NCBI RefSeq assembly: GCF_035084215.1
Contig: NC_090331.1
Span: 56,730,001 to 56,794,000, forward strand
From: Heptranchias perlo
Lineage: Eukaryota
Direction of reading: 5' to 3'
DNA length: 64,000 bases
Positions 18,401 to 45,400 of this stretch are shown here, piece after piece. The stretch's first letter is position 1, and each line of letters begins with the position of its first letter. A program made the translations under genes and the position numbers. The notes beneath the pieces are model-generated. The model was not told the origin of the DNA and did no database searches. It saw nothing but the letters and a program-made list of their open reading frames with translations.

Positions 18401-21400
18401 AACAGACCATCCGGCCTAACTGATCTGTGCTGGTGTTTATGCTCCATACAAGCCTCCTCCCACCCTACTTCATCTAACCCAATCAACATATTCTTCTGTT
18501 GCTTTCTCCCTCATGTGCTTATCTAGCTTCCTCTTAAATGCATCTTTGCTATTCGCCTCAACTACTCCTTATAGTATTGAGTTCCACATTCTAACCGCTC
18601 TCTGGGTAAAGAAGTTTCTCCTGAATTCCCTATTGGATTTATCAGTGACTATCTTATATTTATGGCCCCTAGTTCTGGTCGCCCTTGCAAGTAGAAACAT
18701 CTTTTCTATGTCTACCCTATCAAACCCTTTCATAATCTTAAAGACCTCTATCAGGTCACCCCTCAGTCTTTACTTTTCTAGAGAAAGGAGCTCCAGCCTG
18801 TTCAATCTTTTCAGAAAGGTACATCCTCTCAGTTCTGGTATCATCCTTGGAAATCTTTCTTGCAGACCTTTTTGCTATACAAGGCTCAGTGCCATGTCAC
18901 ATGGTAACATTTACACACTCGTAGACCAGTGGAGCACCAAACAAAAATCATTTGGAATACAGCAAATGATAAACATAATTTATATACAAAGAGAGTACAC
19001 AGGAGCAAGAAAAATACTGGTATCTTCATTAAGAAATAAACTGACCTTTCACAGTCAAGACACCACTGCATTCATCGCTTCCTGCAGCATTCGTTGCTTT
19101 ACATGTATAACTGCCGGCATCTGACATTGTCAATGTATTTACTTTCAAATCACATGTATTATCTCCAAATGCAAGATGATATTTTTCTCCGTGTACAATC
19201 TCCTGTCCATCTTTGAACCAAGACATAGTAATAGGTGGTGATCCTGACACCTTGCACTCCATTTGGATGGGAGAAGCCAAGATACCATCCATTTTCTTTA
19301 ACTTGCTTGTAAATGTTGGTGGAATAATTCGATCTGTTTAAGTTACACCAATAAACCATGATTATAAAGAGATTTGAAAAAAATATTTTAAAATCCTGAA
19401 GAAAACAGTATGAAGAAGAAAAAGCAGTAAACCAAACCTAGAACGCTGACTGATGCTTTGCAGCTGCTGCTACCGACATTATTCTGGACTTCGAAAGCAT
19501 ATTCACCACTGTCTGCCTGCACTGCAGACAGAATTTTTAGTCTGGCAATTTTGTTTAGAAAGCTGATCCTATATTTTATGCCAGATGCTAACTCTTGACC
19601 ATCTTTCAACCATTTCGCTTTTAGTTCTGGTGTACCTGTAACAATGCATTCCAAAGTTGCTGGATCTCCCGCAGTTACACTGATAGATTCTGCTTTTTCC
19701 ACTATTGTGGCAGGTTCTATAAGAAAAAAACCTCCATTTACAAAATATTCTTGATAAACACTGGCAAATAAAATAATAGTCTGTAATCCTCTCAAATATG
19801 AATTAAATTCTATAAACATCTAGTATATTGATATTAGGTTACTGACCCAGAACTACTACAGTAGCAGTGCATTCTTGCATTCCAGCATCATTTTTGATTT
19901 GGCAAGTATACTTTCCAGCATGAACTGGTTCTAATTTTGCAATATGTAAAGTAACAATGTTTTGTTCATAGGTAATAGTCATGTACTCATTATCTTTCAC
20001 TTCTTCCTTTTCCTTGATCCATGTTACATTAATTGGTTCTGAGCCTTTAATGGTAGATTGTAAAGTTACAGACTCTCCAGGCACAGAAGAAATGTCTGAA
20101 AGTTTCTTCACAAATGCTGGTGGCTCTGAAGAATTAAAGAAATATTCCTTTCATGTGAAACATAACCTTAAAGAAATGTTTTCCTAAAATTATAACAACA
20201 GTAAAATTTAAATGTACAATTTGGAAAATTTACCAACCTTTTAGATTTAAGGTGCCAATACAATTGTCACTTCCCACATCATTCTTGGCCATGCACATGT
20301 ATTCCCCTCTGTCTGGCGTCTCTACTTTAAGAATATGAAGACCTGCTACATGGTTTTCATAAGTAATTTTATACTTTTTACTTGCTCGGATTTGCCTTTT
20401 GTCTTTATACCAGGTAACTTCAAAAGGAGATGTACCACTGAATTCACACTGCAGTATGACATCAGAGCCTTTCAGTACATCAACTGCCTCAAGTGTTTTA
20501 CTGAAAATAGGAGGTTCTGTAAGAAGATCATAATTTGTCTCATTTATGCATTCATGAAGAAAAGATACTTGCTTTATAACTTTGACAGACTTTTATATAT
20601 GCATCTGAAAAAAGCTACCTACCTTTGACTGCAACAGCTACACTGCAACTGACACTGCCAGCTTCATTTTGAGCTTCACAAATGTAATCACCGCTATCTT
20701 CCAAATCAGCATCAATAATTTCAAGAACTGCTACAGAATTATCAAAATGCATTTTGTATTTGTTACCAGCACTAATTTCAGCATCATTCTTGAACCATGA
20801 AACCTTGATTTCAGGCGTGCCAATCACTTTGCACTCAAAATGTGCTGATTCACCCTTCTTCAGTACTTTGGATGGTTCCAGCTTCTGAATGAAAGATGGG
20901 AGCTCTGGGAAACCAAAATAGAGTACATTTAGTGCCAGGGTTACAGGAATGTTACATTTTGGAATAATTGGAATTGTGAAATATGTGGAAAGAAGTGGAC
21001 AAAGTAAAAATTGCATAAGAGAATGTTATAAATTCTTTTAAAAAGACAAATTATAAATCAATTATAATTTTTTTAATGTTATAGATAATAAAAAGCATAC
21101 AATAGAATTGTTGTAATGAAGAGTATAAGATGATAATATATCCTTGAGGCAATGAAGAGTATAAGAAACTAATATAGAATTGATGTGATAAAGAATATAA
21201 GATAACATACAATTGATGTCATGATGAACACAATATGTTAACATAGAACACAGATAAGAAAGAAGATTCGAATATACTGAGAATACTCAGCAACTTAAAG
21301 ACATTAACAACAAATAAAAGACAAACAAGATGCTGATAACATATACCAACACAACATAAAAAATGCACACCTGTCACAAACAATTTTGCTGTGCAAGTAT

Positions 21401-24400
21401 CTGTGCCAACATCATTGGTGACGTGGCAAGTATAGTATCCTGTATTAGAATGTTTTACTGAGTACAGTTGTACAAAACTGGATGAACCTTCCGTCACAAT
21501 GCAACATGTAGCATCAGAATTTAGTTCCTTGTCATCCTTAAACCATTTGAAAGACAGGGGAGGTGTTCCTTTCACATCACTCTTGAACTGTACTGCAGAA
21601 TAGGGGGGCACCTCCTGTGACAATGGTTTTACTATAAATCTTGGTGGTTCTAAAATTCATTGAAGAAAAAATATATTTGTCGCAATAAAGAGCACATATA
21701 AAAAGATTCATCAACTTTTGTGTTATAAACTACATAACTAATAAATTCAGAGTAATTATTTCAAACTTTCAAGAAATTCTGGCAAGGTTAAAATATGATA
21801 TGACTGACAAGTACCATGTTAAGAAATTGAGCAGAAACAGTAAGACAATATTTCAAACCTTTCACAGTTAGTGTGCCACTGCATTCATCACTTCCTGCTA
21901 CATTTGATACTCTGCAAGTATAAATTCCACCATCTGCGATTTCTAGTTGATTAATCTCCAAAGATGAAGCGTTATCTCGCTGTGATAGTTTATATTTGTT
22001 ACTATCTGATATCTCTTTCCCATCCTTATACCAATCAATGCTCATTGGAAGAGAAGCAGATACTTTGCACTCCATGGACATGAAAGACCCTAATACAGAG
22101 CCCGTATCCTTTAATTTTTTCGTAAATGTTGGAGCAACTAATCGATCTGTACAATACAGAGCACAACCTGTAAGCTTAAAGTGTAAAAGTAGCCTAAAAC
22201 ACCTGCTTTGTTTTCATGCTTTAACTGCAATCCTTTTCACATCCAAATCTCTCAATACATTTAAAATACTAACCTAATACTGTCAAGGAAGCTTTGCAGC
22301 TGTCGACTCCAAACTCATTCTGGACCTCAAAAGTATATTCACCACTACTCGCCTTCTCTACGGATAGAATCTTTAGACTGGCCATGTTTTTCTCAAAGGT
22401 CAATTTGCATTTTCTGCTGGATGTGAGCTCCTTTCCATCCTTAAACCATTTAACTTTTAGGTCTGGTGTACCAGCTACAGTACATTCCAAAATTGCTGGA
22501 TTTCCTACAGTTACACTGCATGATTTTATTTCCTCAACAATTTTTGCAGATTCTGTTAAGAAAAAATACTCTGCTGAGTAATGTTGTCAGTATGTTTAAT
22601 ATTTTAATGTGGCCTTCTTTTTCACATTAGTATGATAAACAAATATGAATTTGGCAGTAACTGACTTTTACATGTTAGTCAATCATGTTTCCTACCAACC
22701 TGTTACTATCAACGTAGCAAAACATTTCTCAATCCCTGCATCATTTTTGGCCTGACAGATGTATTTCCCACCATGTTTTTCTTCAACAGTTGTAATTTGT
22801 AGGATAGAAATATTGTTTTCAAAAGAAATTGCTGTGTTATCATCTTCTTTGATATCATCATTATCTTTCATCCAACTTATCGATAAAGGTTGTGAGCCTT
22901 TTACAAGGCATTGAAATATAGTAGAATTTCCAGCAATTGTTGTAACATTTTCAATCTTCCTTATAAATGATGGGGGTTCTGGTTCAAGGTAAATAGGCAT
23001 ACAAATAAATATGAGTAATTTGCTCTGTCCTCTTTAATGATTATAATAAAATGGCAATACATACTGTATTTGGAACTATTCCCTAAAATGTCAACATTAC
23101 ACGTTAGCTGCTAAAACTGTGCTATGTGATGAAGGTAAAAGTATTTTCTTATTACAATGTAACTAACCTTTTAAATTGACACCACAACTGCAGGAGCAGC
23201 TTCCCACATCATTTGTTACTATGCATTTATAGTCACCGACGTCTGAAACATCCAACTTCAAAATATGAAGACTAACTAAAGAGTTCTTAGTGAGCATCTT
23301 GTATTTTTCACTAGATGGAATTTGTTTATTGTCCTTATACCACATAACGTCAAAGGGACCTGTGCCAGCCATCTCACATTCAAGAGTGACACCACTGGCT
23401 TTTACTACCTCAGCAGATTGAAGTTTCCTTCTAAAACTGGGAGGTTCTATAAAGTAATCACAATAAAGAAATCCAAATCAACCAAAAAGCAGAAACTAAC
23501 AGTATCCCTCCTCAAGAAACTAACATATATATTTTGTTACCAAATTAAAGAAGACATTATTACAGACCTTTAACTTCAACTTCACTGCTGCAGCTGTCAC
23601 TACCAGCTTCATTCCGTGCTTCACAGATGTAGCATGAACTGTCATCCAAAATAACATCAATAATCTCAAGAACTGCCACGGAACTATCAAATGACATCAT
23701 ACACTTGTCACTGGCTATAATTTCATGGCCGTTTTTGTACCAAGTAACTCTGATTTCAGGTGTGCCAGTTACAATGCACTCAAAACGTGCTGAGACTCCT
23801 TTCTTTAGTATTGTTGAAGAATCTAGCTTTTTAATGAAGCTAGGAGGTTCTAGAAGCCAAAATATTACAAACTTCAATATACATTTAAAGGATAATCAAA
23901 AGCAATTCAAACTAATATTTAGATATAAATAATTGGCTACATAACATTTACAGACTAAATTTATAATTTTTTTAAAAACTTAGTTTAAAACTCAAATAGA
24001 GCTCTGTGTATGGTAAAGTAAACTGCATTTCCTTTTTCATATGCTATCGGGTTCCGTAATTGCTGCCTCCACCAAAATAGTTCTTCCTTCCATAGGAGGG
24101 GTGGGGCATTGTCGGCTGTGAAAGTCCTCAAAATTGACATCATTATAAGTTTACGATCAGATGATACCAATCAATTTTAGTGAGACTGTTGGTTTTGCCA
24201 ATTCTTCTTTGAATGGAGACAGAATTCTCCACCACTACATGATGCTCCACCAAGCAGTTAATGATAAATCATCGAGTCTAACTGTGAGACCAGACTTGAA
24301 TGCCAGACGATTATCACTGCCCCCTCTCCCTGGTTGGGAGTGTGAAGTTCTACCACTAGAGTTCACCAACCATCAAATAAACAAATTGTTGTTTCCAAAC

Positions 24401-27400
24401 TTTTAAAATAGCAAAGCAGAGAAAACAGTTTTATATAAAATAGAACTGCAGCAAAAATACAGAAATGCACACCTTTAACAAACAATTTTGCAGAACAGGC
24501 ATCTGTGCCAACATCGTTGCTAACTTGGCAGGTGTAACTACCCGCATCAGATACTTTGGATGAAAACAGCTCTAACAAATATGTTGAGCCTTCATTCCAC
24601 ATAGAATATGTCACACCAGGCATCAATTCCCTGTTCTCTTTGAACCATTTTGTAGACAGTGGTGTGGTCCCTTTCACAACACTCCTAAACTGCACTGTAG
24701 AACCAAGTATAACATCCTGGGACATTATTTTGGCTGAAAAGCTTGGGGGCTCTAAAATTCACACAAAAAGAAAACATTTAATGAGCTCAGATGTACATAC
24801 AAGTTAGAAGAGCTGATCAGAGTAAAGACAACTTTATGAATAACACATGCTAACATATCCATTAAAAACCTAAGAACACTTAAGAAAATGAAGATAGAGA
24901 TGGCCTATCAGTTTTGGTTACTTCACTATCGCAGCAAAAACAAATAGAAACTGTTTGGCTAAGAAAACAAGTATTTGTTTATAGTACTGAAGAGAAAGAA
25001 ATATAGCAAAGCAATGTTTCAAACCTTTTACACTTAAGACAGCACTGCATTCATCCCTTCCTGCTGAATTTGCTGCTTTGCATGTGTAAATTCCACCGTC
25101 TGAAAAGTCTAACTCATTGACCTCTAAAGACACCATGTTGTCTTGAAATGACATCTTGTATTTGTTACTAGCTGATATTTCTCTGTCATCTTTATACCAA
25201 GAAATGCTCATTGGAATGGAACCAGAAAGTTTGCATTCCATTCGTACCAAAGATCCTAAAGTACTGCCCATTTCCTTTAGTTTTCTTGTAAACAATGGAG
25301 CAATTATTTGTTCTGTCCAATATAAAGAAAAAAAATCACAATACATCAATAAAAGTATTATAACTTTGTGATAAACTTTGGTTTTAAAATAAATGCTTGA
25401 TGAAATCAAAGCCATCGACACTAATTAATCACTGACCTATCACTGTCAAAGAAACATGGCAGCTGTTGGCTCCAAACTCATTCTGGACCTTAAAAGTATA
25501 GTCACCACTGTCAGCCATTTCAACAGAAAGAATTTTTAGACTGGCCACCTTATTCACAAAACTCATCTTATATTTTCTATTTGATTCCAGTTGCTTTCCA
25601 CTTTTGAACCATGCAACATTTAATTCTGGTGTACCAGCTACAGTACATTCCAAAATGGCTGGATTTCCTGCAGTCACTGTGAGTGGCTCAGTTTTCTCTA
25701 TAATATTCGCAGGTTCTGTGGGAAAAATTAGATATTTTACATCAGGAGAACTATGTAATATTTATGGTAGGATTGTTATTTTAAGAAAATAAATTTGGGG
25801 GCATGGACTGCACAACGGGTTTGATATCGCATGGACCTGGGTTCAAATCCAGTCAAGACAGCTGCAATAAAAATCTCATCTACATGCTTGCTGTAAGTGT
25901 TCCATGTGAAATTAGTTTGGGCAGTCTCAATATAGCTCCCAATGGGTTTGTGCATAAACTGTCTCTCAGTGGGCATTAAGTTAGAAATCTCATTCAGAGA
26001 CCTCGCAAAATAGATGGGGTGGGAAATGGGAAAATGACACACAGATACAGTGGAAATGCTCTTCTGAGGATGTGCAAGAGGCACATTTTTGGGGCAGAAT
26101 AGAGGGAGCTATACCCTGCATTTAACTGCCACACCGGAGTGCTTGATCCTGACAATGGTTGCACGACATGGAAAATGTCCCCTTTGTCAGTAATAGCATT
26201 CCTCACCTTGATGATCATAAATTAATTTAAAAACATTCAAATAATTTTACTGTGGAAAAGTAAATATTATGAAACAGAGATCAATAATTTGTGGACAATA
26301 CATATGCTCATTACTTCCTACTAACCCATTACGGTCAACGTGGCAAAACATTTTGCAGTTCCCGCATCATTCTTTGCCTGACAAATATAATTTCCACTGT
26401 GATTTTCTTCAACCTTAATAATCTGTAATGTGGCAACATTGTTTTCAAAGGACATTTTTACATTATCATCTTCTTTGACATGTTTGCCATCTTTCTTCCA
26501 GTTTGTAGATATAGGAACTGAGCCTTTTACAAGACATTGAAATACAGCAGAATTTCCAGAAAATACTGTTGCATTTTCTATTGTTTGTACGAAGGTTGGT
26601 CGCTCTAGTTTAAAGAGAATATACTCTGTTATAATTGACAATTATACAACCAATCTTCAATTATTGCAAATATTGTGCTTCAAGACATTCAATAACACCT
26701 AACAGGAAGATGACAACAAAGCAGATACCACACAACATCCAGGTAAAATCACTTACTAGAACTGGATTGTAACTGACCTTTCAAATTGACTGTAGAACTG
26801 CAGGAACAACATCCCACATCATTTTTTACTGTACACTTGTATTCACCAACATCTGAGCTATCAGACTTTAGAATGCAAAGACTGGCTAAAGAATTCTCAG
26901 AGACCATTTTGCATTTTTTACTGCGTCGAATTTGTTTATTGTCCTTATACCACATAACGTCAAAGGGACCTGAACCGGCCACCTCACATTCAAGTGTGAA
27001 ATCACTGGTTTTTACTACCTCAACTTGCTCAAGCTTCTTCGTAAATGTGGGAGGTTCTAAAGAGTAAACACATTAACATGGTTTACAAATCACAGCCACT
27101 AAATTCAATTTCTGCACAGTGTCTCCCAACAATAATCATTAACACCAAAAAATATTTCCGTGATCTTTAATTGAATGTGTGATGGCTAATCATGGACGAC
27201 AAACCAACACACAGATGTTTTCTCCTCCAGCTTATTATTTAATGCACATCAGTCAAATACTTCAACAAATACCATTCACATTTTTTCTTTTATACATAGC
27301 TACAATTTTCAATGGCATTATCAGCCCTCAACGTTAATAATTTAGCCTAGATGCACGTGACTTTAGCATGTAAAAAAGGAGGAATTTTAATTCCCCTGAT

Positions 27401-30400
27401 CAGCAGGAACAAAGAGGGGGAGCAGTTAAAACGGAGCGTCTCCATTTGCCGCTCTGTTCCCGTCACTTCCCTATTTTAGCACCGCTGGTTTTGGCGGCGG
27501 ATGTGGCGACCACTGGACTGCATCAGGAGCTGCACTAATAAATGCAAATCGGGGTCCCATAACGTACATGGAACGCAAGTGGCATTTTAACGTTCTCCTG
27601 AGCGAGATGGGCGGCACGGCTGCCCCGACAGGTAAAGTTGTCAGGGAGTCAGCGAGGGTACATTAAGAATGCATCCATAATGGGACCAGGAAGAGCACGA
27701 GAGCTACTCCGGACCCCACAGAGATATTCTGGGCCTCTATTGCTCTGGGCTTCCCCCCTCCTCAGTAATGAGACCCTCACAACACAGCACCACCAACCCC
27801 CACCCCACTCCCAGACTTACCTTGCTGCCGGCAGCCTTCTAGGTGCCAGAGCTTGGTCTTCAATCATTCCCCCCCCCCCCCCCCCCCCCGCTGCCAGCCA
27901 TCCCCCCAGCCAGCCAGCTGCCACTTTCGCTCGAAACAGATGAGCAGCTGAAAAGCGGCATTTAAATTAGGCCAAGCAGTTAATATCTGCCGGAGCCTCT
28001 GATGAAGACTCCTGCATGGCCTGGTCCTGCCAGCTTCCCACTGGAAATTAAAATCAGTCCTTAGGAGTCAACTTAAAAATGTACGAGTAAAATGTTTACA
28101 TTATGTTTCATAAATCAATTTGAGAGAAGGAGCTGGTGGCAAGTGAATAATAATTGTTATTAGCCAATTATAAAACAGCTATAAAACCAGGCTGATGAAG
28201 TCAAGGCTCCCAAATATTCTATAATTAAGCACAAGACACTTGCAACATTTTCGGAAAGACCCATTAGCTTCTGATGGAAAATTTAACTTGGAATTTTTAC
28301 ACACCTTTAACTGTAACTTTAATATCGCAAGATTCACTGCCAGCTTCATTTTGTGCTTTACAGGAATAATTCCCACTGTTATCCAGGCTTATATCAGCAA
28401 TCTCAAAGATTGCCACAGAATCAACAAATGACATTCTGTATTTTTCACTGGCTCTAATTTCACGATTATTGCTGAACCAAGTGATTTTGATTTCAGGTGT
28501 GCCAGTTACTTTGCACTCAAAATTTGCTGTCTCTCCTTTTTTAAATATTGCCGTAAGATCTAACTTCTTAATGAAATATGGAGGTTCTAGAGAAGAAAAT
28601 GTAGTAAATTTAAATATAAATGCAAAAGTCTGAAACAAACCCATACAACATAAAAAGGAACAATGAAATGCATGCAACATATAAAGGAATTAAGGAAGAC
28701 AACACACCACACAATAGCAACATCAAAAATAAGAAATAAGAGATAAGTATGTAACAATCCAAAGAAAAATAACTTTACAGACATGTAAACTTTTGAAACT
28801 GGAACACATCAGAATTTTAACTATGTTCCACAATGGTTTAAAAAGTGAACCTAAAATGCACACCTTTGATAAATAGTCTTGTCGTACAAGTGGCGCTGCC
28901 AACCTTGTTGCTGACTTCACAAGTATAGTCACCCATGTCAGAAACTTTAGCTGAAAACAACTCTAGTAAACTTGTTGAACCTTCACTTAAAATGAAACAA
29001 TCAGCTCCAGACATCAGTTCCCTGCCATCCTTCAGCCATTTTATAGATAGTGGAGCAGTTCCTTTCACAACACTTCTAAACTGCACTGCGGAACCAGGTA
29101 GACTTTCCTGGGCTACGGGTTTTTCTATAAAACTTGGTGGCTCTAAAAGTCAGGTGAAAAAAAAATAGAATTGGATCCCTGTAGGACTTAATTTACAATG
29201 TGTAAGATATCAACAAAAATAAAATGGCAGAGCTAAAATTAGAACTTACTATAAATTGCATAACAAATTTTAAACACTATGTAGTGATCCTTTTTAGGGC
29301 AACAAGCAAAAATCAGAAACTGCTGAATAAGTGCAAATTATATGCAAAAGCTATAGTAGGAACTGAAACAAAGCAAGCTCATCTTTCAAACCTGTTATAT
29401 TTAAGATACCACTGCATTCATCCATTCCTGCTGAATTGGTTGCTTTGCAAATATAAGTTCCATGATCTGAAATCTCCAGTTGATTAACTTCCAAAGTTGT
29501 TTTGCTATCTTGACATAATACTTTGTATTTTTCACTAGTTGTTATTATTTTGTAATCTTTAAACCATGAAAAGCTCATTGGAAGAGAACCAGAAACTTTG
29601 CATTCCATATGTATGAAAGATCCTAAAATACTGTCCATTTTCCGTAATTTTCTTGTAAACAATGGGGGAATTATTTGATCTGTCCAAGATAAAGTGACAA
29701 AAGCACAGCCAATCAACTTAAACAGCAAATATTTGCAAGTGCTTTAAATGAATCAAATCCACTGTGATTGTTTACAATAAGACTTAATGATTTCAAAAGT
29801 GGAATTTTCATATTTATTAGGATGTTCTTTCTGAGACCATTCAAAACAAAACTTATTTTAAAACTCTCAACACAGCTAATCTGCCGACTCTCATCATTAC
29901 AACAAACAACTTGCATTTATATAGCAACGCGCGTCACAGGTGCGTAATCAAACAAAATCTGACATTGAGCCACGTAAGGAGATATTAAGACTGGTGACAT
30001 AGGTTTTAAGGAGCGTCTTAAAGGAGGAGAGAGAGGGAGAGAGATGGGAGTTTTAGGGAGGGAATTCCAGAGCTTAGGGCCTAGGCTGCTGAAGGCACGA
30101 CTGCCAATAATGAACATCATAACAATAAGAGACTTTATATATGTTTATGGTTGATGTGATCAGGATTTCTTTATTTGCAAGCAAAATTTTCAAATGACAC
30201 TGGATATTTAAATTAGTCAAATTCTAAATGCAAATAAAACACTAACCTAGTACTGTCAATGAAGCTTTACAACTGCTGGTTCCAAATTGATTCTTGACCT
30301 CAAAAGTGTATTCAGCACTATCATCATTGGAAACAGAAGGAATCTTTAGGCTGACCACATTATTCTCAAAGCTGATTTTGTGTTTTCTGCTAGGTACCAT

Positions 30401-33400
30401 TTCATTTCCATCCTTAAAACATTTAATTTTTAGTTCTGGTGTACCAGTTACAGTACATTCCAGATTTGCTGCATTTCCTGCGGTCACACTGAGTGACTGT
30501 GCTTGTTCTGTGATTTTTGCTGGTTCTATGAGAAAAAAAAATCTCTTCAATATATCAAAAGCAAAATACTGCGGATGCTGGAAATCTGAAATAAAAACAG
30601 AAATTGCTGGAAAAGCTCAGCAAGTGAGGCAGCGTCTGTGGAGGAAGAAACAAAGTCAATGTTTCAGGTCGAAGACCTTTCATCAGAATTGGAAGATGTT
30701 AAAGTTTTTGAGCAGGTACAGAGCCAGGGAAAGGGGAGGAAAGGACAAAAGGGAAGGTCTGTGATAGGGTAGTGGGCAAGAGTGATTAAATGTCAAAAGG
30801 GATGATGGTGCGAGGCAAGGAAGGTGGTAATGGGACAGGTTCAGAAACAAAAGATTGGTCAAGAGTAGCTGTAAATGGCAACAGCAGAACCATTACCAGC
30901 AGTTGCTGTCTGAAAAAATGGAAGCAGTGGTTATGAACTGAAGTTATTGAAATCAATGTTGAGTCCAGAAGGTTGTAAAATGCCTAATCGAAAGATGAGG
31001 TGCTGTTCCTCGAGCTTACATTGAGCTTCATTGGAACAGTGTAAGAGGCCGAGGACAGAGAGGTCAGTGTGGGAGCGGGGCGGGGAATTAAAATGCCAAG
31101 CGACCGGCAGGTCAGGGTCACGCTTGTGGACAGAATGGAGATGTTCAGGAAAGCACAACCAATCTGTGTTTGGTCTCCCCAATGTAGAGGAGACCACATT
31201 GTGAGCAGAGAATACAGTATACTAAATTGAAAGAAGTACAAGTAAATCGCTGTTTCAACTGGAAGGATTGTCTGGGGACCTGGACGATGGTACATCTGCA
31301 ATATATTACTGGTATGAATCTCATTTTAGTTGATACATGATATAGAATATGAACCCACTTGTAACTAGCAAAAACTTTGGAGTGGAGAGTACTAATAAGC
31401 TAACAAATATCCTACTGACCTGCTACCGACAATGTGGCAACACACTTCTCAGTTCCTGCATCATTCTTGACCTGACACGTATATTTCCCAGCATGATTTT
31501 CTCCAACAGCATTTATTTGAAGAGTAGCAATATTATTCTCAAAAGACAATGTAATATTACCATCTTCTTGGATATCATCTTTATCTTTCATCCAAGTTAC
31601 ATACATAGGCTTTGAGCCTCTCAATAGACTTTGGAATACAATAGAATTCCCTGACAATGTTGTTATATTTTCAATCTTCTTTATAAATCCTGGGGGTTCT
31701 AGTTTAAAACAAATGATAATATGAATATTTGAACATTTTTCATAGCTCTTCATTATGGTTCTTAAAATGCTTTAATGTAAAAGGTAGAAGGCTTCCACAT
31801 ATAGCTTGGCAATGCATTCTCTAATGGAGAACATAGATAACAAAAATGGCACTATAAATAGTGGAAGAAAAATAGGTTCTGACCGCACACTATAACTGAC
31901 CTTTCAAACTGACTATAGAAGTGCAGGTACAACTCCCCACATCATTTTTTACAGTGCACTTGTATTCGCCAACATCTGATACATCAGAGTTTAGAATGCA
32001 AATGATAGCTAAAGAATTCTCAGAGATCATTTTGTATTTTTTGCTGCGTCGAATTTGTTTATTGTCCTTATACCACATAACGTCAAAGGGACCTGTGCCA
32101 GCCACCTCACATTCAAGAGTGATATCACTGGTTTTAACTATCTCAGCAGATTGAAGTTTCCTTCTAAAACTGGGAGGTTCTATAAAGTAATCACAATAAA
32201 GAAATCCAAATCAACCAAAAAGCAGAAACTAACAGTATCCCTCCTCAAGAAACTAACATATATATTTTGTTACCAAATTAAAGAAGACATTATTACAGAC
32301 CTTTAACTTCAACTTCACTGCTGCAGCTGTCACTACCAGCTTCATTCCGTGCTTCACAGATGTAGCATGAACTGTCATCCAAAATAACATCAATAATCTC
32401 AAGAACTGCCACGGAACTATCAAATGACATCATACACTTGTCACTGGCTATAATTTCATGGCTGTTTTTGTACCAAGTAATTCTGATTTCAGGTGTGCCA
32501 GTTACAATGCACTCAAAACGTGCTGAGACTCCTTTCTTTAGTATTGTTGAAGAATCTAGCTTTTTAATGAAACGAGGAGGTTCTAGAAGCCAAAATATTA
32601 CAAACTTCAATATACGTTTAAAGGATAATCAAAAGCAATTCAAACTAATATTTAGATATAAATAATTGGCTACATAACATTTACAGACTAAATTTATAAT
32701 TTTTTTAAAAACTTAGTTTAAAACTCAAATAGAGCTCTGTGTATGGTAAAGTAAACTGCATTTCCTTTTTCATATGCTATCGGGTTCCGTAATTGCTGCC
32801 TCCACCAAAATAGTTCTTCCTTCCATAGGAGGGGTGGGGCATTGTCGGCTGTGAAAGTCCTCAAAATTGACATCATTATAAGTTTACGATCAGATGATAC
32901 CAATCAATTTTAGTGAGACTGTTGGTTTTGCCAATTCTTCTTTGAATGGAGACAGAATTCTCCACCACTACATGATGCTCCACCAAGCAGTTAATGATAA
33001 ATCATCGAGTCTAACTGTGAGACCAGACTTGAATGCCAGACGATTATCACTGCCCCCTCTCCCTGGTTGGGAGTGTGAAGTTCTACCACTAGAGTTCACC
33101 AACCATCAAATAAACAAATTGTTGTTTCCAAACTTTTAAAATAGCAAAGCAGAGAAAACAGTTTTATATAAAATAGAACTGCAGCAAAAATACAGAAATG
33201 CACACCTTTAACAAACAATTTTGCAGAACAGGCATCTGTGCCAACATCGTTGCTAACTTGGCAGGTGTAACTACCCGCATCAGATACTTTGGATGAAAAC
33301 AGCTCTAACAAATATGTTGAGCCTTCATTCCACATAGAATATGTCACACCAGGCATCAATTCCCTGTTCTCTTTGAACCATTTTGTAGACAGTGGTGTGG

Positions 33401-36400
33401 TCCCTTTCACAACACTCCTAAACTGCACTGTAGAACCAAGTATAACATCCTGGGACATTATTTTGGCTGAAAAGCTTGGGGGCTCTAAAATTCACACAAA
33501 AAGAAAACATTTAATGAGCTCAGATGTATATACAAGTTAGAAGAGCTGATCAGAGTAAAGACAACTTTATGAATAACACATGCTAACATATCCATTAAAA
33601 ACCTAAGAACACTTAAGAAAATGAAGATAGAGATGGCCTATCAGTTTTGGTTACTTCACTATCGCAGCAAAAACAAATAGAAACTGTTTGGCTAAGAAAA
33701 CAAGTATTTGTTTATAGTACTGAAGAGAAAGAAATATAGCAAAGCAATGTTTCAAACCTTTTACACTTAAGACAGCACTGCATTCATCCCTTCCTGCTGA
33801 ATTTGCTGCTTTGCATGTGTAAATTCCACCGTCTGAAAAGTCTAACTCATTGACCTCTAAAGACACCATGTTGTCTTGAAATGACATCTTGTATTTGTTA
33901 CTAGCTGATATTTCTCTGTCATCTTTATACCAAGAAATGCTCATTGGAATGGAACCAGAAAGTTTGCATTCCATTCGTACCAAAGATCCTAAAGTACTGC
34001 CCATTTCCTTTAGTTTTCTTGTAAACAATGGAGCAATTATTTGTTCTGTCCAATATAAAGAAAAAAATCACAATACATCAATAAAAGTATTATAACTTTG
34101 TGATAAACTTTGGTTTTAAAATAAATGCTTGATGAAATCAAAGCCATCGACACTAATTAATCACTGACCTATCACTGTCAAAGAAACATGGCAGCTGTTG
34201 GCTCCAAACTCATTCTGGACCTTAAAAGTATAGTCACCACTGTCAGCCATTTCAACAGAAAGAATTTTTAGACTGGCCACCTTATTCACAAAACTCATCT
34301 TATATTTTCTATTTGATTCCAGTTGCTTTCCACTTTTGAACCATGCAACATTTAATTCTGGTGTACCAGCTACAGTACATTCCAAAATGGCTGGATTTCC
34401 TGCAGTCACTGTGAGTGGCTCAGTTTTCTCTATAATATTCGCAGGTTCTGTGGGAAAAATTAGATATTTTACATCAGGAGAACTATGTAATATTTATGGT
34501 AGGATTGTTATTTTAAGAAAATAAATTTGGGGGCATGGACTGCACAACGGGTTTGATATCGCATGGACCTGGGTTCAAATCCAGTCAAGACAGCTGCAAT
34601 AAAAATCTCATCTACATGCTTGCTGTAAGTGTTCCATGTGAAATTAGTTTGGGCAGTCTCAATATAGCTCCCAATGGGTTTGTGCATAAACTGTCTCTCA
34701 GTGGGCATTAAGTTAGAAATCTCATTCAGAGACCTCACAAAATAGATGGGGAGGGAAATGGGAAAATGACACACAGATACAGTGGAAATGCTCTTCTGAG
34801 GATGTGCAAGAGGCATATTTTTGGGGCAGAATAGAGGGAGCTATACCCTGCATTTAACTGCCACACCGGAGTGCTTGATCCTGACAATGGTTGCACGACA
34901 TGGAAAATGTCCCCTTTGTCAGTAATAGCATTCCTCACCTTGATGATCATAAATTAATTTAAAAACATTCAAATAATTTTACTGTGGAAAAGTAAATATT
35001 ATGAAACAGAGATCAATAATTTGTGGACAATACATATGCTCATTACTTCCTACTAACCCATTACGGTCAACGTGGCAAAACATTTTGCAGTTCCCGCATC
35101 ATTCTTTGCCTGACAAATATAATTTCCACTGTGATTTTCTTCAACCTTAATAATCTGTAATGTGGCAACATTGTTTTCAAAGGACATTTTTACATTATCA
35201 TCTTCTTTGACATGTTTGCCATCTTTCTTCCAGTTTGTAGATATAGGAACTGAGCCTTTTACAAGACATTGAAATACAGCAGAATTTCCAGAAAATACTG
35301 TTGCATTTTCTATTGTTTGTACGAAGGTTGGTCGCTCTAGTTTAAAGAGAATATACTCTGTTATAATTGACAATTATACAACCAATCTTCAATTATTGCA
35401 AATATTGTGCTTCAAGACATTCAATAACACCTAACAGGAAGATGACAACAAAGCAGATACCACACAACATCCAGGTAAAATCACTTACTAGAACTGGATT
35501 GTAACTGACCTTTCAAATTGACTGTAGAACTGCAGGAACAACATCCCACATCATTTTTTACTGTACACTTGTATTCACCAACATCTGAGCTATCAGACTT
35601 TAGAATGCAAAGACTGGCTAAAGAATTCTCAGAGACCATTTTGTATTTTTTACTGCGTCGAATTTGTTTATTGTCCTTATACCACATAACGTCAAAGGGA
35701 CCTGAACCGGCCACCTCACATTCAAGTGTGAAATCACTGGTTTTTACTACCTCAACTTGCTCAAGCTTCTTCGTAAATGTGGGAGGTTCTAAAGAGTAAA
35801 CACATTAACATGGTTTACAAATCGCAGCCACTAAATTCAATTTCTGCACAGTGACTCCCGACTATAATCACTGGCATCAAAAAATATTTCCGTGATCTTT
35901 AATTGAATGTGTGATGGCTAATCATGGACGACAAACCAACACACAGATGTTTTCTTCTACAGCTTATTATTTAATGCACATCAGTCAAATACTTTAATAA
36001 ATACCCTTCACATTTTTTCTTTCATACATAGCTACAATTTTCAATGGCATTATCTGCCCTCAATGTTAATTAATTAGCCGAGGTGCACATGACTTCAGCA
36101 TATAAAATAAAGGGATGAGGAATTTTAACTCTCCCTTATCAGCAGGAATGAAGAGGGGGTGCAGATAAAATGGAGTGGCTCCATTTCCTGCTCTGTTCCC
36201 GCCAATTCCCCATTTTAACACCGTTAGTTTTGGCGGCAGATGAGGCGACCACTGGACTGCGGCAGGATCCGCACTAATAAATGGAAATCGGGGTCGCAAT
36301 TCGTACATGGGACACATGTGGCATTTTAATGTTCTCCTGTTTCAGCTGTCCGCCAGTTAAAGTTGTAGGGAAGCTAATGAGGCCTTCGTGATCAATTAAA

Positions 36401-39400
36401 AATCTTTCCTTTGTGGGATCAGGAGGAGCTCAGGTGGTACTCCGGGCCCCGCAAAGAAAGTCTCGGCTTTTCTGCCCCGGGCTTACCCTCTCCCCACCCA
36501 TGCAACGCTTGCAAAACTTCCCCTCCCAGACTAACCTTACTGCCAGCATCCTTCTCTTGGTGCTAGAGGGCAGCCTACATTCACTCCCCATCACCCTGGC
36601 AAGCCAGCTGCTGCTTTCTGCTCGAAATGGACAAGCAATTGAATGGCGGCATTCGAATAGGGCCGAGCAGTTAAAATCTGCCGGGGCCTCCAATGAAGAC
36701 TCCTGCACAGTCTGGTCCTGCCAGCTTCCCGCCGGTAATTAAAAGTTTAAAATGTACGAGTAAAATGTTTGCATTATGTTTCATAAATCAATTTGAGAGA
36801 AGGAGCTGGTGGCAAGTGAATAATAATTGTTATTAGCCAATTATAAAACAGCTATAAAACCAGGCTGATGAAGTCAAGGCTCCCAAATATTCTATAATTA
36901 AGCACCAGACACTTGCAACATTTTCGGAAAGACCCATTAGCTTCTGATGGAAAATTTAACTTGGAATTTTTACACACCTTTAACTGTAACTTTAATATCG
37001 CAAGATTCACTGCCAGCTTCATTTTGTGCTTTACAGGAATAATTCCCACTGTCATCCAGGCTTATATCAGCAATCTCAAAGATTGCCACAGAATCAACAA
37101 ATGACATTCTGTATTTTTCACTGGCTCTAATTTCACGATTATTGCTGAACCAAGTGATTTTGATTTCAGGTGTGCCAGTTACTTTGCACTCAAAACTCGC
37201 TGTCTCTCCTTTTTTAAATATTGCCGTAAGATCTAACTTCTTAATGAAATATGGAGGTTCTAGAGAAGAAAATGTAGTAAATTTAATTATAAATGCAAAA
37301 GTCTGAAACAAACCCATACAACATAAAAAGGAACAATGAAATGCATGCAACATATAAAGGAATTAAGGAAGACAACACACCACACAATAGCAACATCAAA
37401 AATAAGAAATAAGAGATAAGTATGTAACAATCCAAAGAAAAATAACTTTACAGACATGTAAACTTTTGAAACTGGAACACATCAGAATTTTAACTATGTT
37501 CCACAATGGTTTAAAAAGTGAACCTAAAATGCACACCTTTGATAAATAGTCTTGTCGTACAAGTGGTGCTGCCAACCTTGTTGCTGACTTCACAAGTATA
37601 GTCACCCATGTCAGAAACTTTAGCTGAAAACAACTCTAGTAAACTTGTTGAACCTTCACTTAAAATGAAACAATCAGCTCCAGACATCAGTTCCCTGCCA
37701 TCCTTCAGCCATTTTATAGATAGTGGAGCAGTTCCTTTCACAACACTTCTAAACTGCACTGCGGAACCAGGTAGACTTTCCTGGGCTACGGGTTTTTCTA
37801 TAAAACTTGGTGGCTCTAAAAGTCAGGTGAAAAAAAAATAGAATTGGATCCCTGTAGGACTTAATTTACAATGTGTAAGATATCAACAAAAATAAAATGG
37901 CAGAGCTAAAATTAGAACTTACTATAAATTGCATAACAAATTTTAAACACTATGTAGTGATCCTTTTTAGGGCAACAAGCAAAAATCAGAAACTGCTGAA
38001 TAAGTGCAAATTATATGCAAAAGCTATAGTAGGAACTGAAACAAAGCAAGCTCATCTTTCAAACCTGTTATATTTAAGATACCACTGCATTCATCCATTC
38101 CTGCTGAATTGGTTGCTTTGCAAATATAAGTTCCATGATCTGAAATCTCCAGTTGATTAACTTCCAAAGTTGTTTTGCTATCTTGACATGATACTTTGTA
38201 TTTTTCACTAGTTGTTATTATTTTGTAATCTTTAAACCATGAAAAGCTCATTGGAAGAGAACCAGAAACTTTGCATTCCATATGTATGAAAGATCCTAAA
38301 ATACTGTCCATTTTCCGTAATTTTCTTGTAAACAATGGGGGAATTATTTGATCTGTCCAAGATAAAGTGACAAAAGCACAGCCAATCAACTTAAACAGCA
38401 AATATTTGCAAGTGCTTTAAATGAATCAAATCCACTGTGATTGTTTACAATAAGACTTAATGATTTCAAAAGTGGAATTTTCATATTTATTAGGATGTTC
38501 TTTCTGAGACCATTCAAAACAAAACTTATTTTAAAACTCTCAACACAGCCAATCTGGCTACTCTCATCATTACAACAAACAACCTGCATTTATATAGCGC
38601 CTTTAATGTCGAACGTACCAAGGCGATTCACAGGAGCGTTGTCAAATAAAATTGCCATTGAGCCAAATAAGGAGATATTAATACAGGTGACCGAAAGCTT
38701 GGTCGAAGAATTAGGATTTTAGGAGGGTCTTAAAGGAGGAGAGAGAGTTAGAGCGGCGGAGTGGTTTAGGGAGGGAATTCCAGAACTTAGGGCCTAGGCT
38801 GCTGAAGGCACGGCCACTAATAAGATCAATAATGAATATTATGACAATAAGAACCTTTATATATATTTATGGTTGATGTGATCAGGATTTCTTTATTTGC
38901 AAGCAAAATTTTCAAATGACACTGGATATTTAAATTAGTCAAATTCTAAATGCAAATAAAACACTAACCTAATACTGTCAATGAAGCTTTACAGCTGCTG
39001 GTTCCAAATTGATTCTTGACCTCAAAAGTGTATTCAGCACTATCATCATTGGAAACAGAAGGAATCTTTAGGCTGACCATATTATTCTCAAAGCTGATTT
39101 TGTGTTTTCTGCTAGGTACCATTTCATTTCCATCCTTAAAACATTTAACTTTTAGTTCTGGTGTACCAGTTACAGTACATTCCAGATTTGCTGCATTTCC
39201 TGCGGTCACACTGAGTGACTGTGCTTGTTCTGTGATTTTTGCTGGTTCTATGAGAAAAAAAAATCTCTTCAATATACTACGGATATGAATCAATAGTTAG
39301 TTGATACATGATAAAGAATATGAACCCACTTGTAACTAGCAAAAACTTTGGAGTGGAGGGTACTATAAAGCTAACCAATATCCTACTGACCTGCTACTGA

Positions 39401-42400
39401 CAAAGTGGCAAAACACTTCTCAGTTCCTGCGTCATTCTTGACCTGACACATATATTTCCCAGCATGATTTTCTTCAACAGCATTTATTTGAAGAGTAGCA
39501 ATATTATTCTCAAAAGACAATGTAATATTACCATCTTCTTGGATATCATCTTTATCTTTCATCCAAGTTACATACATAGGCTTTGAGCCTCTCAATAGAC
39601 TTTGGAATACAATAGAATTCCCTGACAATGTTGTTATATTTTCAAGCTTCTTTATAAATCCTGGGGGTTCTAGTTTAAAACAAATGATAATGTGAATATT
39701 TGAATATATTTCACAGTTTTTCATTATGGTTCTTAAAACGCTTTAATATTCCACAAATAGCTTAGCAATGCATTCTCTAATGAGGAACACAGATAACTAA
39801 AATGGCACTATAAACAGTGGAAGAAAAATAGGTTCTGACAACACTCTATAACTGACCTTTCAAACTGACTGCAGAACTACAGGAACAACTCCCCACATCA
39901 TTTTTTACTGTGCACTTGTATTCGCCAACATCTGATACATCAGATTTTAGAATGCAAAGACTGGCTAAAGAAGTCTCAGAGATCATTCTGTATTTTTTGC
40001 TGCGTCGAATTTGTTTATTGTCCTTATACCACATAACGTCAAAGGGACCTGTACCGGCCACCTCACATTCAAGAGTGATATCACTGGTTTTAACTACCTC
40101 AACCGGTTCAAGTTTCTTTATAAATGTGGGAGGTTCTAAAGAGCAAACACAACAATGTGGCTTAGGAAACAATCAAATGCCAAAAGCTAAATCTCTCTTT
40201 AAGCATATCTGATATTATTTTACACACCTTTAACCTGGACCACAAAGTTGCAGCTATTACCACCAGCTTCATTTTGCGCTTCACAGGAATAATCCCCACT
40301 ATCTTCCACAATTACATCAGCAACCTCGAGAACAGCCAATGAGTTTTGAAATGATATGCTGTATTTGTCACTGGTTCTAATATCATGGTTATTTCTGTAC
40401 CATGTGACTGTGATTTCAGGTGTACCAGTTACTTTGCTCTCAAAATGTGCAAATTCTCCCTGTTTCAGTACTGTTGAAGGAGATGGCTTCTTAACAAAAC
40501 TTGGAGGTTCTGGGAAAATTAAATGCAATAAACCTGAATACTGCAAGTACAAAGTAAAGTTAGGGCACATGAAGAATAGATTAGTAGACAAGTGACTAAA
40601 AGACACCTTCAGATAAATGTTACTCAACTTTGATTTTAAGAAAACTAAGGAAGAAATATAACACTGTTAAAAATGTTGCACAAAAATCATTTCTAATAAG
40701 ATTTACAAGAAAAGCAAACCTTTGATGAATACTTCTGCAGTACTGGTGATTGAACCAGCTTCATTGCTGAGTTGGCAGTTGTAAACACCAGCGTCAGAAA
40801 CTTTAGTTGACATTAGCTCAAAGAAGTGTGCTGCTTCTTCATTCCAAATGGAACATCTTGCACCAGGCTTCAATTCCCTATTATCTTTGAACCACTTGAC
40901 AGACAGTGGAAGAGTTCCTTTCACAACACTCTTAAACTGCAGTGTCGATCCTTGTGCAATTCCTTGGGACATTGGTTTTTCTATAAAGTTCGGTGATTCT
41001 ATAATTCATTTAAGAAAATGTTTTTTTATTAAGGTCAGATAAAGTAAATATAAAAATAATACTTCTAAAATTAATTACATAACTCTAGCATTTTACTACT
41101 GATCACAACATGTTAAAATATTTCAGGAAGTGGAAATACATACAATTTATCTAGGCATTCTACTGTTGCAGAAAAGAAGAAATAGAAAATGTTACAACTG
41201 GAAAATCAGCATTTGATGCGTCTTAAAATAGAAGTGGATTGGAGTAAAGAGATCTTCAAACCTTTTAAAGTTAAGAATCCACTGCATTCGCTACTTCCAG
41301 CAGTATTTGTTGCTTTGCAAGAGTAATTTCCACCATCTGTGATTTCAAGTTCTTTAATCTCCAAAAATGCTGTATTTTCTTCAAATGATATTTTGTATTT
41401 GTCACTAGTTATTATCTCTTTGTTATCTTTATACCAAGAAATGCTGATTGGAAGAGAACCAGATACTTTGCACTCCATGTGCATCAAAGTCCCCAATATG
41501 TTATTCATTTTCTTTAAACTTCTTGTAAAGGATGGAGCAATTATTCGATCTGTCCAACACAGAACAACGAAAATAGTTTGTCAGCTAAAATATCAAAGGG
41601 GAGATTTAACTCACTCTACTCAGTGGAAACGAGGTGGTAATGTTGTTAAAATGGAGGTGCTGGACTTTCTGCTCCATTCCCACTCCACTATTATTTTTCC
41701 CGGGACCTTCTGCTTGGCGGCTGATGGGCACACCGGAAACAAGCAGGAGCCTCATTAATCTATGCAAACTGTGGCCTTATGTACGTCTTATGACATACTT
41801 AGGACTTTGATGCAATTTTATGGCCTACCACGCTGGACGTGTGCCTTGCATGCCTCTGCTCAGTAAGACCTGGTGGTACAGCAGAAAAGGCCCAAAAAGC
41901 TAAGTGTGAAAATTATTTTTATGGGGCCAGGAGGATCAATGGTGCTTCTCTGGGACTTCACACGAAGAAAGTAGGATGCTGCTGCACTGGGATCCCCCCC
42001 TCCACGATTATATCCTCCCCTCCGGTCCTACCTTTCTGCCGGTTAGGTCAGCCTACAGGCCACCTGACATTGCACTAGCCCTGAGCCAGCAAGCTGCAGT
42101 AGGACTGAGTGTAATGTATCCAAGTTTGCTGATGATACAAAGCTAGGTGGGAAAGTAAGCTGTGAGGAGGACAAAAAGAGTCTGCAAAGGGATATAGACA
42201 GGTTAAGTGAGTGGGCAAGAAGGTGGCAGATGGAGTATAATATGGGGAAATGTGAGGTTATTCACTTTGGTAGAAAGGATAGAAAAACAGAATATGTTTT
42301 AAATGGTGAGAAACTATTAAATGTTGGTGTCCAGGGAGACTTGGGTGTCCTGGTACAAGAAACACAAAAAGTTAGCAGGCAGGTTTTTGTGACTGGAAGG

Positions 42401-45400
42401 TTGTTTCAAGTGGGGTTCCGCAGGGCTCAGTACTAGGTCCCTTGCTTTTGTGGTATATATTAATGATTTGGACTTAAATGTAGGGGGCATTATTAAGATG
42501 ATACAAAAATTGGCCATGTGGTTGATAGTGAGGAGAAAAGCTGTAGAAGATATCAATGGACTGGTCAGGTGGGTAAAAAAGTAGCAAATGGAATTCAATC
42601 TGGAGAATTGTGAGGTAATGCATTTGGGGAGGGCAAACAAGGCAAGGGAATACACAATAAATGGGAGGATACTGAGAGGCGTAGAGGTAGTGAGGGACCT
42701 TGGAGTGCATGTCCACAGATCCCTGAAGATAGCAGGACAATTAGGTAAGGTGGTTATGAAGGGATACTTTCCTTTATTAGGCGAGGCACAGAATATAAGA
42801 GCAGGGAGATTATGCTAGAACTGTATAAAACACTAGTTAGGCCACAGCTTGAGCACTGCATACAGTTCTAGTCACCACATTACAGGAAGGCTGTAATTGC
42901 ACTAGAGAGGGTACACTGGAGACTTACGAGGATGTTGCTGGAGTTGGAGAATTTTAGGAATATGAGGGAAGATTGGATAGGCTGGGGTTGTTTTCTTTGG
43001 AACAGAGGAGGCTGAGGGGTGATTTAATTGAGGTGTACAAAATTATAAAGGGCCTAGATGAAGTGGATAGGAAGGACCTATTTCCCTTAGCAGAGAGGTC
43101 AATAACCAGGGGGCACAGATTTGAAGTGATTGGTAGAAGGATTAGAGGGGAGCTGAGGAAAAAGTTTTTCACCCAGATGGTGGTAGGGGTCTGGAACTCA
43201 CTGCCTGAAAGGTTGGTAGAGACAGAAACCCTCATCACATTTAAAAAGTACTTGGGTATAGACTTGAAGTGCCATAACCTACAAGGCTATGGACCAATTG
43301 CTGGAAAGTGGGATTCGGCTGGGTGGCTCATTTCCAGCCGGCGTTGACATGATGGGCTGAATGGCCTCCTTCTGTGCCGTAAATTTTCTATGATTCTATT
43401 ATTCTGGGTACAGCAGGCAATTAGGAAATTAAATAGCATGTTGGCCTTTAATGCAAGGGGGTTGGAATATAAGAGTAAGGAAGTCTTACTACAGTTCTAC
43501 AGGGCTTTGATGAGATCACCCCTGGAGAACTGCGTACAGTTTTGGTCTCCTTATCTAAGGAAGGATATACTTGCCTTGGAGGCGGTGCAACAAATGTTCA
43601 CTAGATAATTTCCTGGGATGAGAGGGTTATCCTATGAGGAGAGGTTGAGTAGAATGGGCCTATACCCTCTGGAGTTTAGAAGAATGAGAGGTGATTTCAT
43701 TGAAACATATAAGATTCTGAGGGGGCTTGACAGGGTAGATGCTGAGAGGTGGTTTTCCATGGTTGGAGAGTCTAGAACTAGAGGGTATAGTCGCAGGATA
43801 AGGGGTTGGCCATTTAAGACTGAGATGAGGAGGAATTTCTTCACTCAGAGGGTTGTGAATCTTTGGAATTCTCTACCCCAGAGGGCTGTGGATGCTGAGT
43901 TGTTGGGCATATTCAAGGCTGAGACAAATAAATTTTTGGACTCTAGTGGAATCAAGGCATATGGGGATCGGGCAGGAAAGTGGAGTTGAGGTTGAAGTTC
44001 AGCCATGATCTTACTGAATGGTGGAGCAGGCTCGAGGGGCCGTATGGCCTACTTCTGCTCCTATTTCTTCTGTTCTTATGTTCTTAGGGCACTGGTTTGG
44101 GGCCTGCAGCACACTAGCGGCATGAAAATGAGGCCTGGCACTTGAAATGGACTGTGAGGGATTGGGCAGCTGGCCCGCTCACCCAACAACTGGCCACCCG
44201 ATAGTTAAAATTCACCCTTAAAATTTTGGCATGTTTTCCTTAAAGGCCCTGTAATATTCTACTAGCTGCTCAAGGCATGAAGATAATTATTACACAACCA
44301 TGAAGGAACTGAAGATGTTACTAAGAAATTGTCTCTAACCAATTGCACACATTTAGAAGATGGTATGATGACATGAAAACACAAATATGATTTCAGAACA
44401 TTTAAAATATACTTTTCTCATTCTAATTATGTTAAAATTATATTGGGCCTTTCCCTTTCAGCTTCTTTTTTGAGAGGCACAATCAAAGGTTTCAACACAT
44501 TAAAAAAAACACCAACCTAGTACTGTCATAGAAGTTGTGCAGCTGCTGTGTCCAAACTCATTCTGGACTTCAAAAGCATATTCCCCACTATCATCTTTAT
44601 CAACAGAAAGAACCTTTAGGATTGCCACCTTATTCACAAAAGTCATTTTATATTTCCTGCTTGATGTCAACTCAGCTCCATTCTTGAACCATCTAACTTT
44701 CAGTTCTGGGGTACCAGCAACAACACATTCCAAAATTGCAGGGGTTCCTGAAGTAATACTTAATGGCTCTGGCTTCTCTATAATTTGTGCAGGTTCTGCA
44801 AGAAAAACCATACTTCCTCAATAGATGAATTTAAAAAAACTGTTTGCATACTTGACACTTTACTGAAATTCACAAATGTCAAGTGTCTCATACTAACCTG
44901 TTACTAACAAGGTGGCAAAACACTTCTCAGTTCCTGCATCATTCCTGGCCTGACATGTGTACTTTCCACTGTGATTTGCTTCAATAGAAGCAATTTGCAG
45001 TACAGCAATACTGTTCTCAAAAGATATTTTAATATTGTCATCTTCTGTGATTTCATCTTTGTCCTTCATCCAAGTGACAAATATGGGAGCTGACCCTTCT
45101 ATTTGGCTGTCGAAAGTGGCTGGATTTCCAGATAATGTTGTAATGTTTTCAAGCTTTTTCACAAATGAAGGGGGTTCTGATTTAAAGTTAAAAGTCGTAT
45201 GAATTAGATATAAGATCAAACACTCAGTATTCTTTCATGCTAAAGTAATAATCCCATGTAAGAATGAATTGCAAAATGGGATTATTGAAAATGTCAAAAA
45301 AGAAAATGATTGGCATTTGATAACTGACCTTTTAATCTGACTCCAGCAATGCAAGAACAACTTCCCACATCATTTGTTACTTCACACTGGTATTCACCAG

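Follow-up and report, generated by a model that had tools for sequence, protein, structure and literature searches.

A titin array of Ig super-repeats in Heptranchias perlo

The window, by which we mean the whole 64,000-nt stretch of contig NC_090331.1 from Heptranchias perlo that was analyzed, carries on its minus strand the middle-Ig array of titin (14827..59095). Six-frame and splice-site scans of the window located this array as successive Ig exons of 279-288 nt. Its first 48 exons form eight 6-Ig super-repeats, which run in gene order from 59095 to 21371 and each contain the slots B, A, F, E, D, and C; the 10 exons after the sixfold slots form one 10-Ig super-repeat (20904 to 14827). All 58 array exons are bounded by AG..GT, are open, and have a length divisible by three, with one Ig domain per exon. 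Adjacent domains share 22-47% identity, and domains six apart mostly 45-70%. Exon by exon and in the same order, the array matches titin-like entries of Mobula, Mustelus, and Callorhinchus, its closest proteins, with 66-89% identity. Protein and representative searches did not retrieve a full-length shark titin; the chondrichthyan pieces are P0001, P0002, P0003, P0009, P0083, and P0213, and none of these six covers an orthologue of the exons A4 or A6 described below.

Some features of the array stand apart from its repeat structure. The core Ig tryptophan is replaced by cysteine in only two of the 58 exons, E6 (30247-30525) and E4 (38969-39247), which possibly reflects relaxed constraint or infrequent use. 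The largest intron within the 6-Ig array, C2-B3 (46004-52055), measures 6 kb, and P0083 of Callorhinchus shows an 86-residue gap between its D2 and C2 matches. An Ig exon following the 10-Ig repeat (14118-14381) gave no fit in the AG..GT boundary search and could differ from the standard in splice site or length. A titin intron holds, on the minus strand, a near full-length LINE-like element (8557-11737), which we take to belong to a CR1-like family and whose endonuclease- and reverse-transcriptase-like frames are broken; shorter related pieces lie at ~17400-17870, 43400-44090, and 60060-60640.

Exon A6 is a hybrid of A8 and A4

Three exons of slot A, all on the minus strand, are central to the following analysis: A8 (23168-23446), A6 (31901-32179), and A4 (39857-40135). 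Each is 279 nt long, bounded by AG..GT, and open. In the genome as a whole (3.25 Gb), A6 has eight matches, all of them inside the window. The first-pass annotation had described A6 as resembling 39857-40135 on its left and 23168-23446 on its right, with the change at about 32137-32145, and both motifs that it quoted were found where it had placed them. An alignment of the exons and their flanks, combined with a maximum chi-square test, recovered the same switch of nearest neighbor along the exon. Informative sites were defined as positions at which A8 differs from A4 and A6 agrees with one of them. A6 is A4-type at 40 of these 54 sites and A8-type at the other 14, including all of the final eight (32146-32170). 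The last A4-type site is 32136 and the first A8-type site to its right is 32146, so that the present switch interval comprises 9 nt that are identical in A4 and A8 (32137..32145). The maximum chi-square of 26.8 was equaled in one of 100,000 shuffles (permutation p 2e-5).

The flanking introns agree with this pattern. Right of the switch, the A6-B6 intron shows no substitution in 121 positions relative to the A8-B8 intron; compared with the A4-B4 intron, 18 of 81 aligned sites differ and six gap runs are required. Left of the switch, the F6-A6 intron is colinear with F4-A4 (18 of 165 sites differ, one gap run) and aligns poorly with F8-A8 (26 of 142 sites, 16 gap runs). Divergence across the seam is unequal, with 0.3% on the right and 9-11% on the left. 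Read in gene order, the first 34 nt of A6 (~11 codons) are A8-type and the remainder is mostly A4-type: A8 is the donor of the 5′ end and the upstream intron, A4 that of the 3′ part and the downstream intron. The switch is in frame and without an indel, and the order 5′ A8, 3′ A4 is the orientation expected of a duplicating unequal crossover.

A unit of twelve exons is present in two tandem copies

The hybrid exon joins two copies of a larger unit, both on the minus strand. Copy 1 (23409..32141) spans 8733 nt, of which 3372 nt are exon, and consists of the 3′ part of A6, the exons F6, E6, D6, C6, B7, A7, F7, E7, D7, C7, and B8, and the 5′ part of A8. Copy 2 (32142..40097) consists of the 3′ part of A4, the exons F4, E4, D4, C4, B5, A5, F5, E5, D5, C5, and B6, and the 5′ part of A6. 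The unit thus contains 12 exons, exactly two super-repeats, in tandem and in direct order, and the two copies meet in register within slot A. Such an arrangement, with a hybrid seam lacking any indel, is one that NAHR would leave. If one copy is removed, six repeats are left, the same count as in the elephant shark. The earlier proposal of recombination between same-slot exons two super-repeats apart stands to this extent: the unit equals two 6-Ig super-repeats, both partners occupy the same slot, and the frame is kept. Its further claim, that this is how super-repeats grow in general, goes beyond a single event, and comparisons at periods 6, 12, and 18 gave no clear signal of an older duplication period outside the duplicated block.

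We compared the two copies by BLAST and by alignment of 12 segments, the borders of which were chosen by eye. With these borders, divergence along the unit amounts to 0.3, 8.1, 20.7, 0.4, 13.9, 1.0, 11.5, 8.2, 0.8, 10.9, 8.7, and 3.3%. The copies are 99.0-99.7% identical in long tracts, but identity drops to 79-92% within or next to mobile elements and to the left of the seam. The first homogenized tract (32142..35823) differs from 23409-27091 by 10 substitutions in 3682 nt. Only five of its 1958 intron sites differ, indicating that the near-identity is not due to selection. This tract is followed by a 284-nt flank in which 23 sites differ between the copies and by an insert, confirmed as a dispersed family, that occupies the same site in both copies (36108..36748; partner 27376-28075) and differs at 128 of 619 aligned sites. 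The second homogenized tract (36749..38549) shows eight substitutions in 1801 nt relative to 28076-29876. It ends at a further same-site repeat-like patch (38550..38865; partner 29877-30143; 37 of 266 aligned sites differ), which is presumably SINE-like. Copy 1 alone carries a mobile element of ~740 nt (30555..31297), flanked by a 12-nt target-site duplication with one mismatch; copy 2 has the empty site. The best 39 other genomic copies of this element are 86-89% alike, corresponding to a family diverged by 11-14%, and a 99% tract terminates at the edge of the insertion. Divergence accordingly falls on the two same-site repeat-like inserts, the one flank, and the stretch from the seam to the 740-nt element.

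Two smaller observations concern exons within the copies. A 240-nt tract covering most of exon F (31481-31720 vs 39452-39691) is 99.2% identical, while both its flanks are 8-11% apart; it is a small conversion tract centered on the exon. In the ten exon pairs lying wholly in homogenized tracts (23409-30554 vs 32142-39276), 10 changed codons are nonsynonymous and three synonymous, which is close to the neutral ratio.

A single event should leave even divergence. The unevenness of the copies, together with patchy identity that includes introns and ends sharply, as is typical of concerted evolution, would therefore suggest an older duplication followed by gene conversion that stalls at heterology. 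The same-site repeats in both copies and the copy-1-only insertion, at the edge of which a 99% tract ends, likely speak for a duplication that is old and homogenized. The unconverted introns differ by 8-11%, which is low for a split of shark-ray age unless earlier rounds of conversion are assumed.

A probable unequal crossover in slot A and the position of the original exchange

Based on these observations, we consider it fairly probable that the 12-exon tandem duplication arose by an unequal crossover between A4 and A8, that it is old in the shark/ray lineage, and that its copies have been re-homogenized patchwise by gene conversion. In this model, A8 would have mispaired with A4 two repeats upstream, and a crossover in the 5′ half of the exon would have turned six repeats into eight. 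With every exon of phase 1-1 and an in-register exchange, splicing and translation of the product would require no further change. Later exchanges between the copies would then have removed differences in tracts of 0.2-3.7 kb bounded by mobile-element sites and indels, besides shifting small patches among the slot-A exons. The switch of 9 bp seen today would mark where the youngest A8-A6 tract stops, close to the original crossover or coinciding with it. Directly observed among these elements are the direct order of the copies, the in-register seam in slot A, the kept frame, the patchy identity, and a twofold read depth (see below).

A mosaic of patches within slot A limits how precisely the exchange can be placed. 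Between the parent exons, the longest perfect homology is a core of 46 nt (32051..32096) that is identical in A4, A6, and A8 and has one or two differences in A5/A7. From its 5′ end, A6 reads A8-type (nt 1-34), A4-type (44-75), A8-type (80 and 83), core, and again A4-type; the second A8-type stretch is a small patch at 32097 and 32100 inside the A4-like part. At the protein level, Mobula and Mustelus have a close version of the core (GPFDVMW) in A8 that is absent from their A5/7, which makes it likely that the core spread from A8 in this lineage. Exon A5 (35510..35788, minus strand; twin A7, 26778-27056) is 91% identical to A4, whereas the other five slots of the A4 and A5 repeats are 70-78% identical, which we read as the trace of a period-6 exchange confined to slot A. 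Same-slot exons have thus likely swapped patches repeatedly. Because of the later homogenization of the copies (0.3% to 21% divergence), the extra A8-type patch, and the shared core, the site of the original exchange can be narrowed down to the 5′ half of the exon (32051-32145) but not to 9 bp, and the first-pass view of the 9-bp switch as a direct trace of the crossover does not hold; the switch may be a conversion edge close to the true crossover.

The same evidence bears on a related scenario, in which homologous or non-homologous joining first placed the seam nearby, either in a flanking intron or where the 46-nt core ends on its 3′ side, and conversion later moved it to 32137-32145. Conversion is rife between the copies, and the patch at 32097/32100, the probable spread of the core, and the similarity of A4 and A5 are all of the kind that such a shift would produce. 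Both introns flanking A6 are wholly of single-parent type, however, and the erasure of an intronic seam would have to cross poorly alignable DNA. In addition, A4-type letters at 32097/32100 account for a depth of 89.1 out of 102.9 among the pieces listed for organism D (run X8), suggesting that the patch postdates the duplication. We therefore regard a displaced seam as unlikely. The crossover between A4 and A8 itself has to accommodate that these exons are, in their present-day state, 80% identical overall, with a longest perfect run of 46 nt and only 9 nt at the switch. By the standard of mammals, a perfect run of 46 nt is short for homologous crossover.

The duplicated block in other cartilaginous fishes

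In Mobula hypostoma, two gene models, P0001 and P0213, contain an E-D-C-B block of the duplicated type; P0213 stops at the B exon. The two blocks are identical at 300 of 372 residues (81%), compared with 369 of 372 (99%) for the copies in the window, and identities across species range from 288 to 300 of 372, those between the window and Mobula or Mustelus from 294 to 300. The two copies in the window are therefore closer to each other than to their counterparts in other species, which indicates concerted evolution only if the duplication is shared. In a phylogenetic tree, the two Mobula blocks group together with a bootstrap value of 96 and site patterns of 9:2:3, and in the AU test this tree was the best of five, the four alternatives tried being rejected. 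The pairing of the Mobula blocks fits an early conversion in rays and a separate ray duplication equally well. The same tree groups Mustelus with Mobula and not with Heptranchias perlo. P0083 and P0003 of the elephant shark (Callorhinchus) together cover repeats 1-3 and the array from C7 onward, with A4 and A5 outside this coverage. In RefSeq, the region is divided among separate "titin-like" models in Mobula and Mustelus.

Assembled reads provided further material from two other organisms. Organism D (run X8) has a contig over 32164-32600 with 37 differences in 436 nt relative to the window and a depth of 27.9; its repeat 3 has a depth of 19.6 (both among the pieces listed). The contig shares 30-letter overlaps with two contigs on the right (depths 15.1 and 17) and two on the left (16.1 and 18). 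Among the pieces listed, depth sums to 70.9 at 32136 and to 87 at 32141. The difference of exactly 16.1 indicates that the contig of depth 16.1 lacks the A8-type letter at 32136 yet continues into the A8-type intron. Read from contig ends and depth sums, this fork would match two copies with a shared hybrid exon; alleles, or an A4-type identity of the contig of depth 18, may still explain it.

Organism F (run X15) fits this picture less well. An F4/F6-type intron is joined there to an exon piece with an A5-type 5′ end, a further sign of period-6 exchange confined to slot A; the piece after the B exon differs at six positions over 32106-32179, as expected of A8; and the pieces listed include none of A6 type. 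Spliced contigs of this organism show F4/6-E4/6 and C-B6/8 junctions, which indicates some use of the block in organism F. Record 9 of run X15 (matching window 31646-32571) is a spliced titin contig of 11.8 kb that runs through the B-A-F trio of another repeat and extends ~6.9 kb further 3′; no close A6, F6, or B6 piece occurs among those listed. This suggests a main isoform in organism F that skips the duplicated block. Run X16, presumed RNA from the same sample as run X1 (see below), yielded a single contig, a spliced piece of repeat 1.

These comparisons raise the question of how often the block was gained. If slot A were a crossover hot spot, this shark lineage, the rays, and the whale shark could each have acquired the block independently, and the 99.7% tracts would reflect a younger event with later unequal exchanges. 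The sister position of the Mobula copies would fit such recurrence. In nebulin, super-repeats have arisen independently on many occasions (PMC7754682), and the duplicated blocks of human TTN and NEB vary in copy number (PMC9142044). Against it, one young event cannot account for same-site repeats that differ by 14-21% and introns that differ by 8-11%, and a ray and likely organism D carry this block twice as well. The count in H. perlo also equals that of the whale shark: PMC12241362 gives eight 6-Ig super-repeats for the whale shark, six for the elephant shark, and three for human and zebrafish. Recurrent gain thus appears improbable to us.

Absence of mobile elements at the seam and support from reads

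The involvement of transposons in the 6-Ig repeats has been suggested in PMC12241362, which leaves the idea untested and contains no transposon analysis. The unit does hold three mobile-element-like inserts. The seam carries none of them, nor do the outer borders 23409 and 40097, which are exonic, and the insert closest to the seam lies 840 nt away and is missing from copy 2. We consider transposon-mediated duplication very improbable for this block, and favor the crossover between A4 and A8 instead.

Reads of DNA run X1, possibly from the source sample and thus independent of the assembly though not of the animal, bear on the reality of the duplication. Among the pieces listed, one contig matches 32111-32700 without a difference and extends 31 letters to the left of 32142; it carries A4-type letters together with the A8-type end. 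Copy-specific pieces have depths of 9.7, 10.7, and 11.5, and pieces common to both copies 20.1, 20.2, and 20.9 (8 of 19 pieces listed). Judged by intron spacing and flank sequence, further contigs belong to the unduplicated repeats 3 and 1, and have depths of 12 and 14.6, again among the pieces listed. This pattern rules out a false duplication: an assembly artifact, whether tandem placement of two haplotypes or a wrong join between similar exons, could draw on the allele-like divergence of the long tracts (0.3-0.4%) and on the possible origin of run X1 from the source sample, but tandem haplotypes predict depths of ~6 and 12 instead of a roughly twofold value on shared and an unduplicated-like value on copy-specific parts, the hybrid letters occur in a read-derived contig, and patches 8-21% apart are unlike alleles, so that such an artifact can practically be dismissed.

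Relation to known systems and implications

Hybrid genes formed by unequal crossover are well known from hemoglobin Lepore and from opsin and glycophorin hybrids. As in these cases, in-register exchange in homologous coding sequence would have given an in-frame hybrid and a change in copy number; the difference is that the partners here are exons of one gene with 80% identity and that the product lengthens one protein by 12 domains. Within titin of cartilaginous fishes, the closest description is that of PMC12241362, which deals with the same region, one exon per Ig, and eight 6-Ig repeats plus one 10-Ig repeat as in the whale shark. That paper maps no breakpoint, contains no match to "breakpoint" or "chimeric exon," and proposes transposons, whereas the seam found here is exonic and the step comprises 12 exons rather than six.

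Near-identical multi-exon blocks that are prone to copy-number change also occur in other giant sarcomere genes or gene parts, namely the segmental duplication of human TTN (PEVK exons) and the triplicate region of NEB (PMC9142044 and PMC6087456). Those blocks consist of PEVK or nebulin repeats and are young, the TTN duplication being dated to 1-3 Myr with LINE-1 as the proposed agent (cited in PMC12241362); the block in H. perlo consists of Ig exons, is likely far older, and owes its identity likely to conversion. Its pattern resembles long-term concerted evolution (e.g., PMC2720389), with paralogues closer within a species than orthologues and with patchy tracts. Here, the exchange takes place between blocks of one gene, the tracts end at mobile-element sites, and the process has apparently stopped in the ray. 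We found no mapped breakpoint of a titin Ig super-repeat in the open-licence PMC and bioRxiv literature, and the accessible part of PMC12198301 contains nothing on breakpoints. The mechanisms are textbook; what is new is this seam of a titin super-repeat at base level.

More tentatively, it is possible that the step from six to eight repeats was a single slot-A crossover in the common ancestor of sharks and rays, that the resulting 8-kb blocks have been held at 99.7% identity in this lineage by conversion stopping at mobile elements while they diverged in rays, and that slot A is a lasting, transposon-free exchange hub that seeds changes in copy number.

The number of Ig domains in the I-band helps to set passive muscle length and stiffness. 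A step of 12 exons leaves neighboring domains only 22-47% identical and thereby avoids the similarity of adjacent domains that is named as an aggregation risk in PMC12241362. Arguments on how super-repeats multiply have so far come from domain trees, and the role proposed for transposons is untested (PMC12241362). A seam without an element is a testable correction to the transposon idea for the 6-Ig repeats, and a base-level seam can be sought in every shark and ray genome, so that the question of transposon versus exon homology becomes testable. Finally, super-repeats that are nearly identical need not have duplicated recently, although this was assumed for nebulin (PMC7754682).
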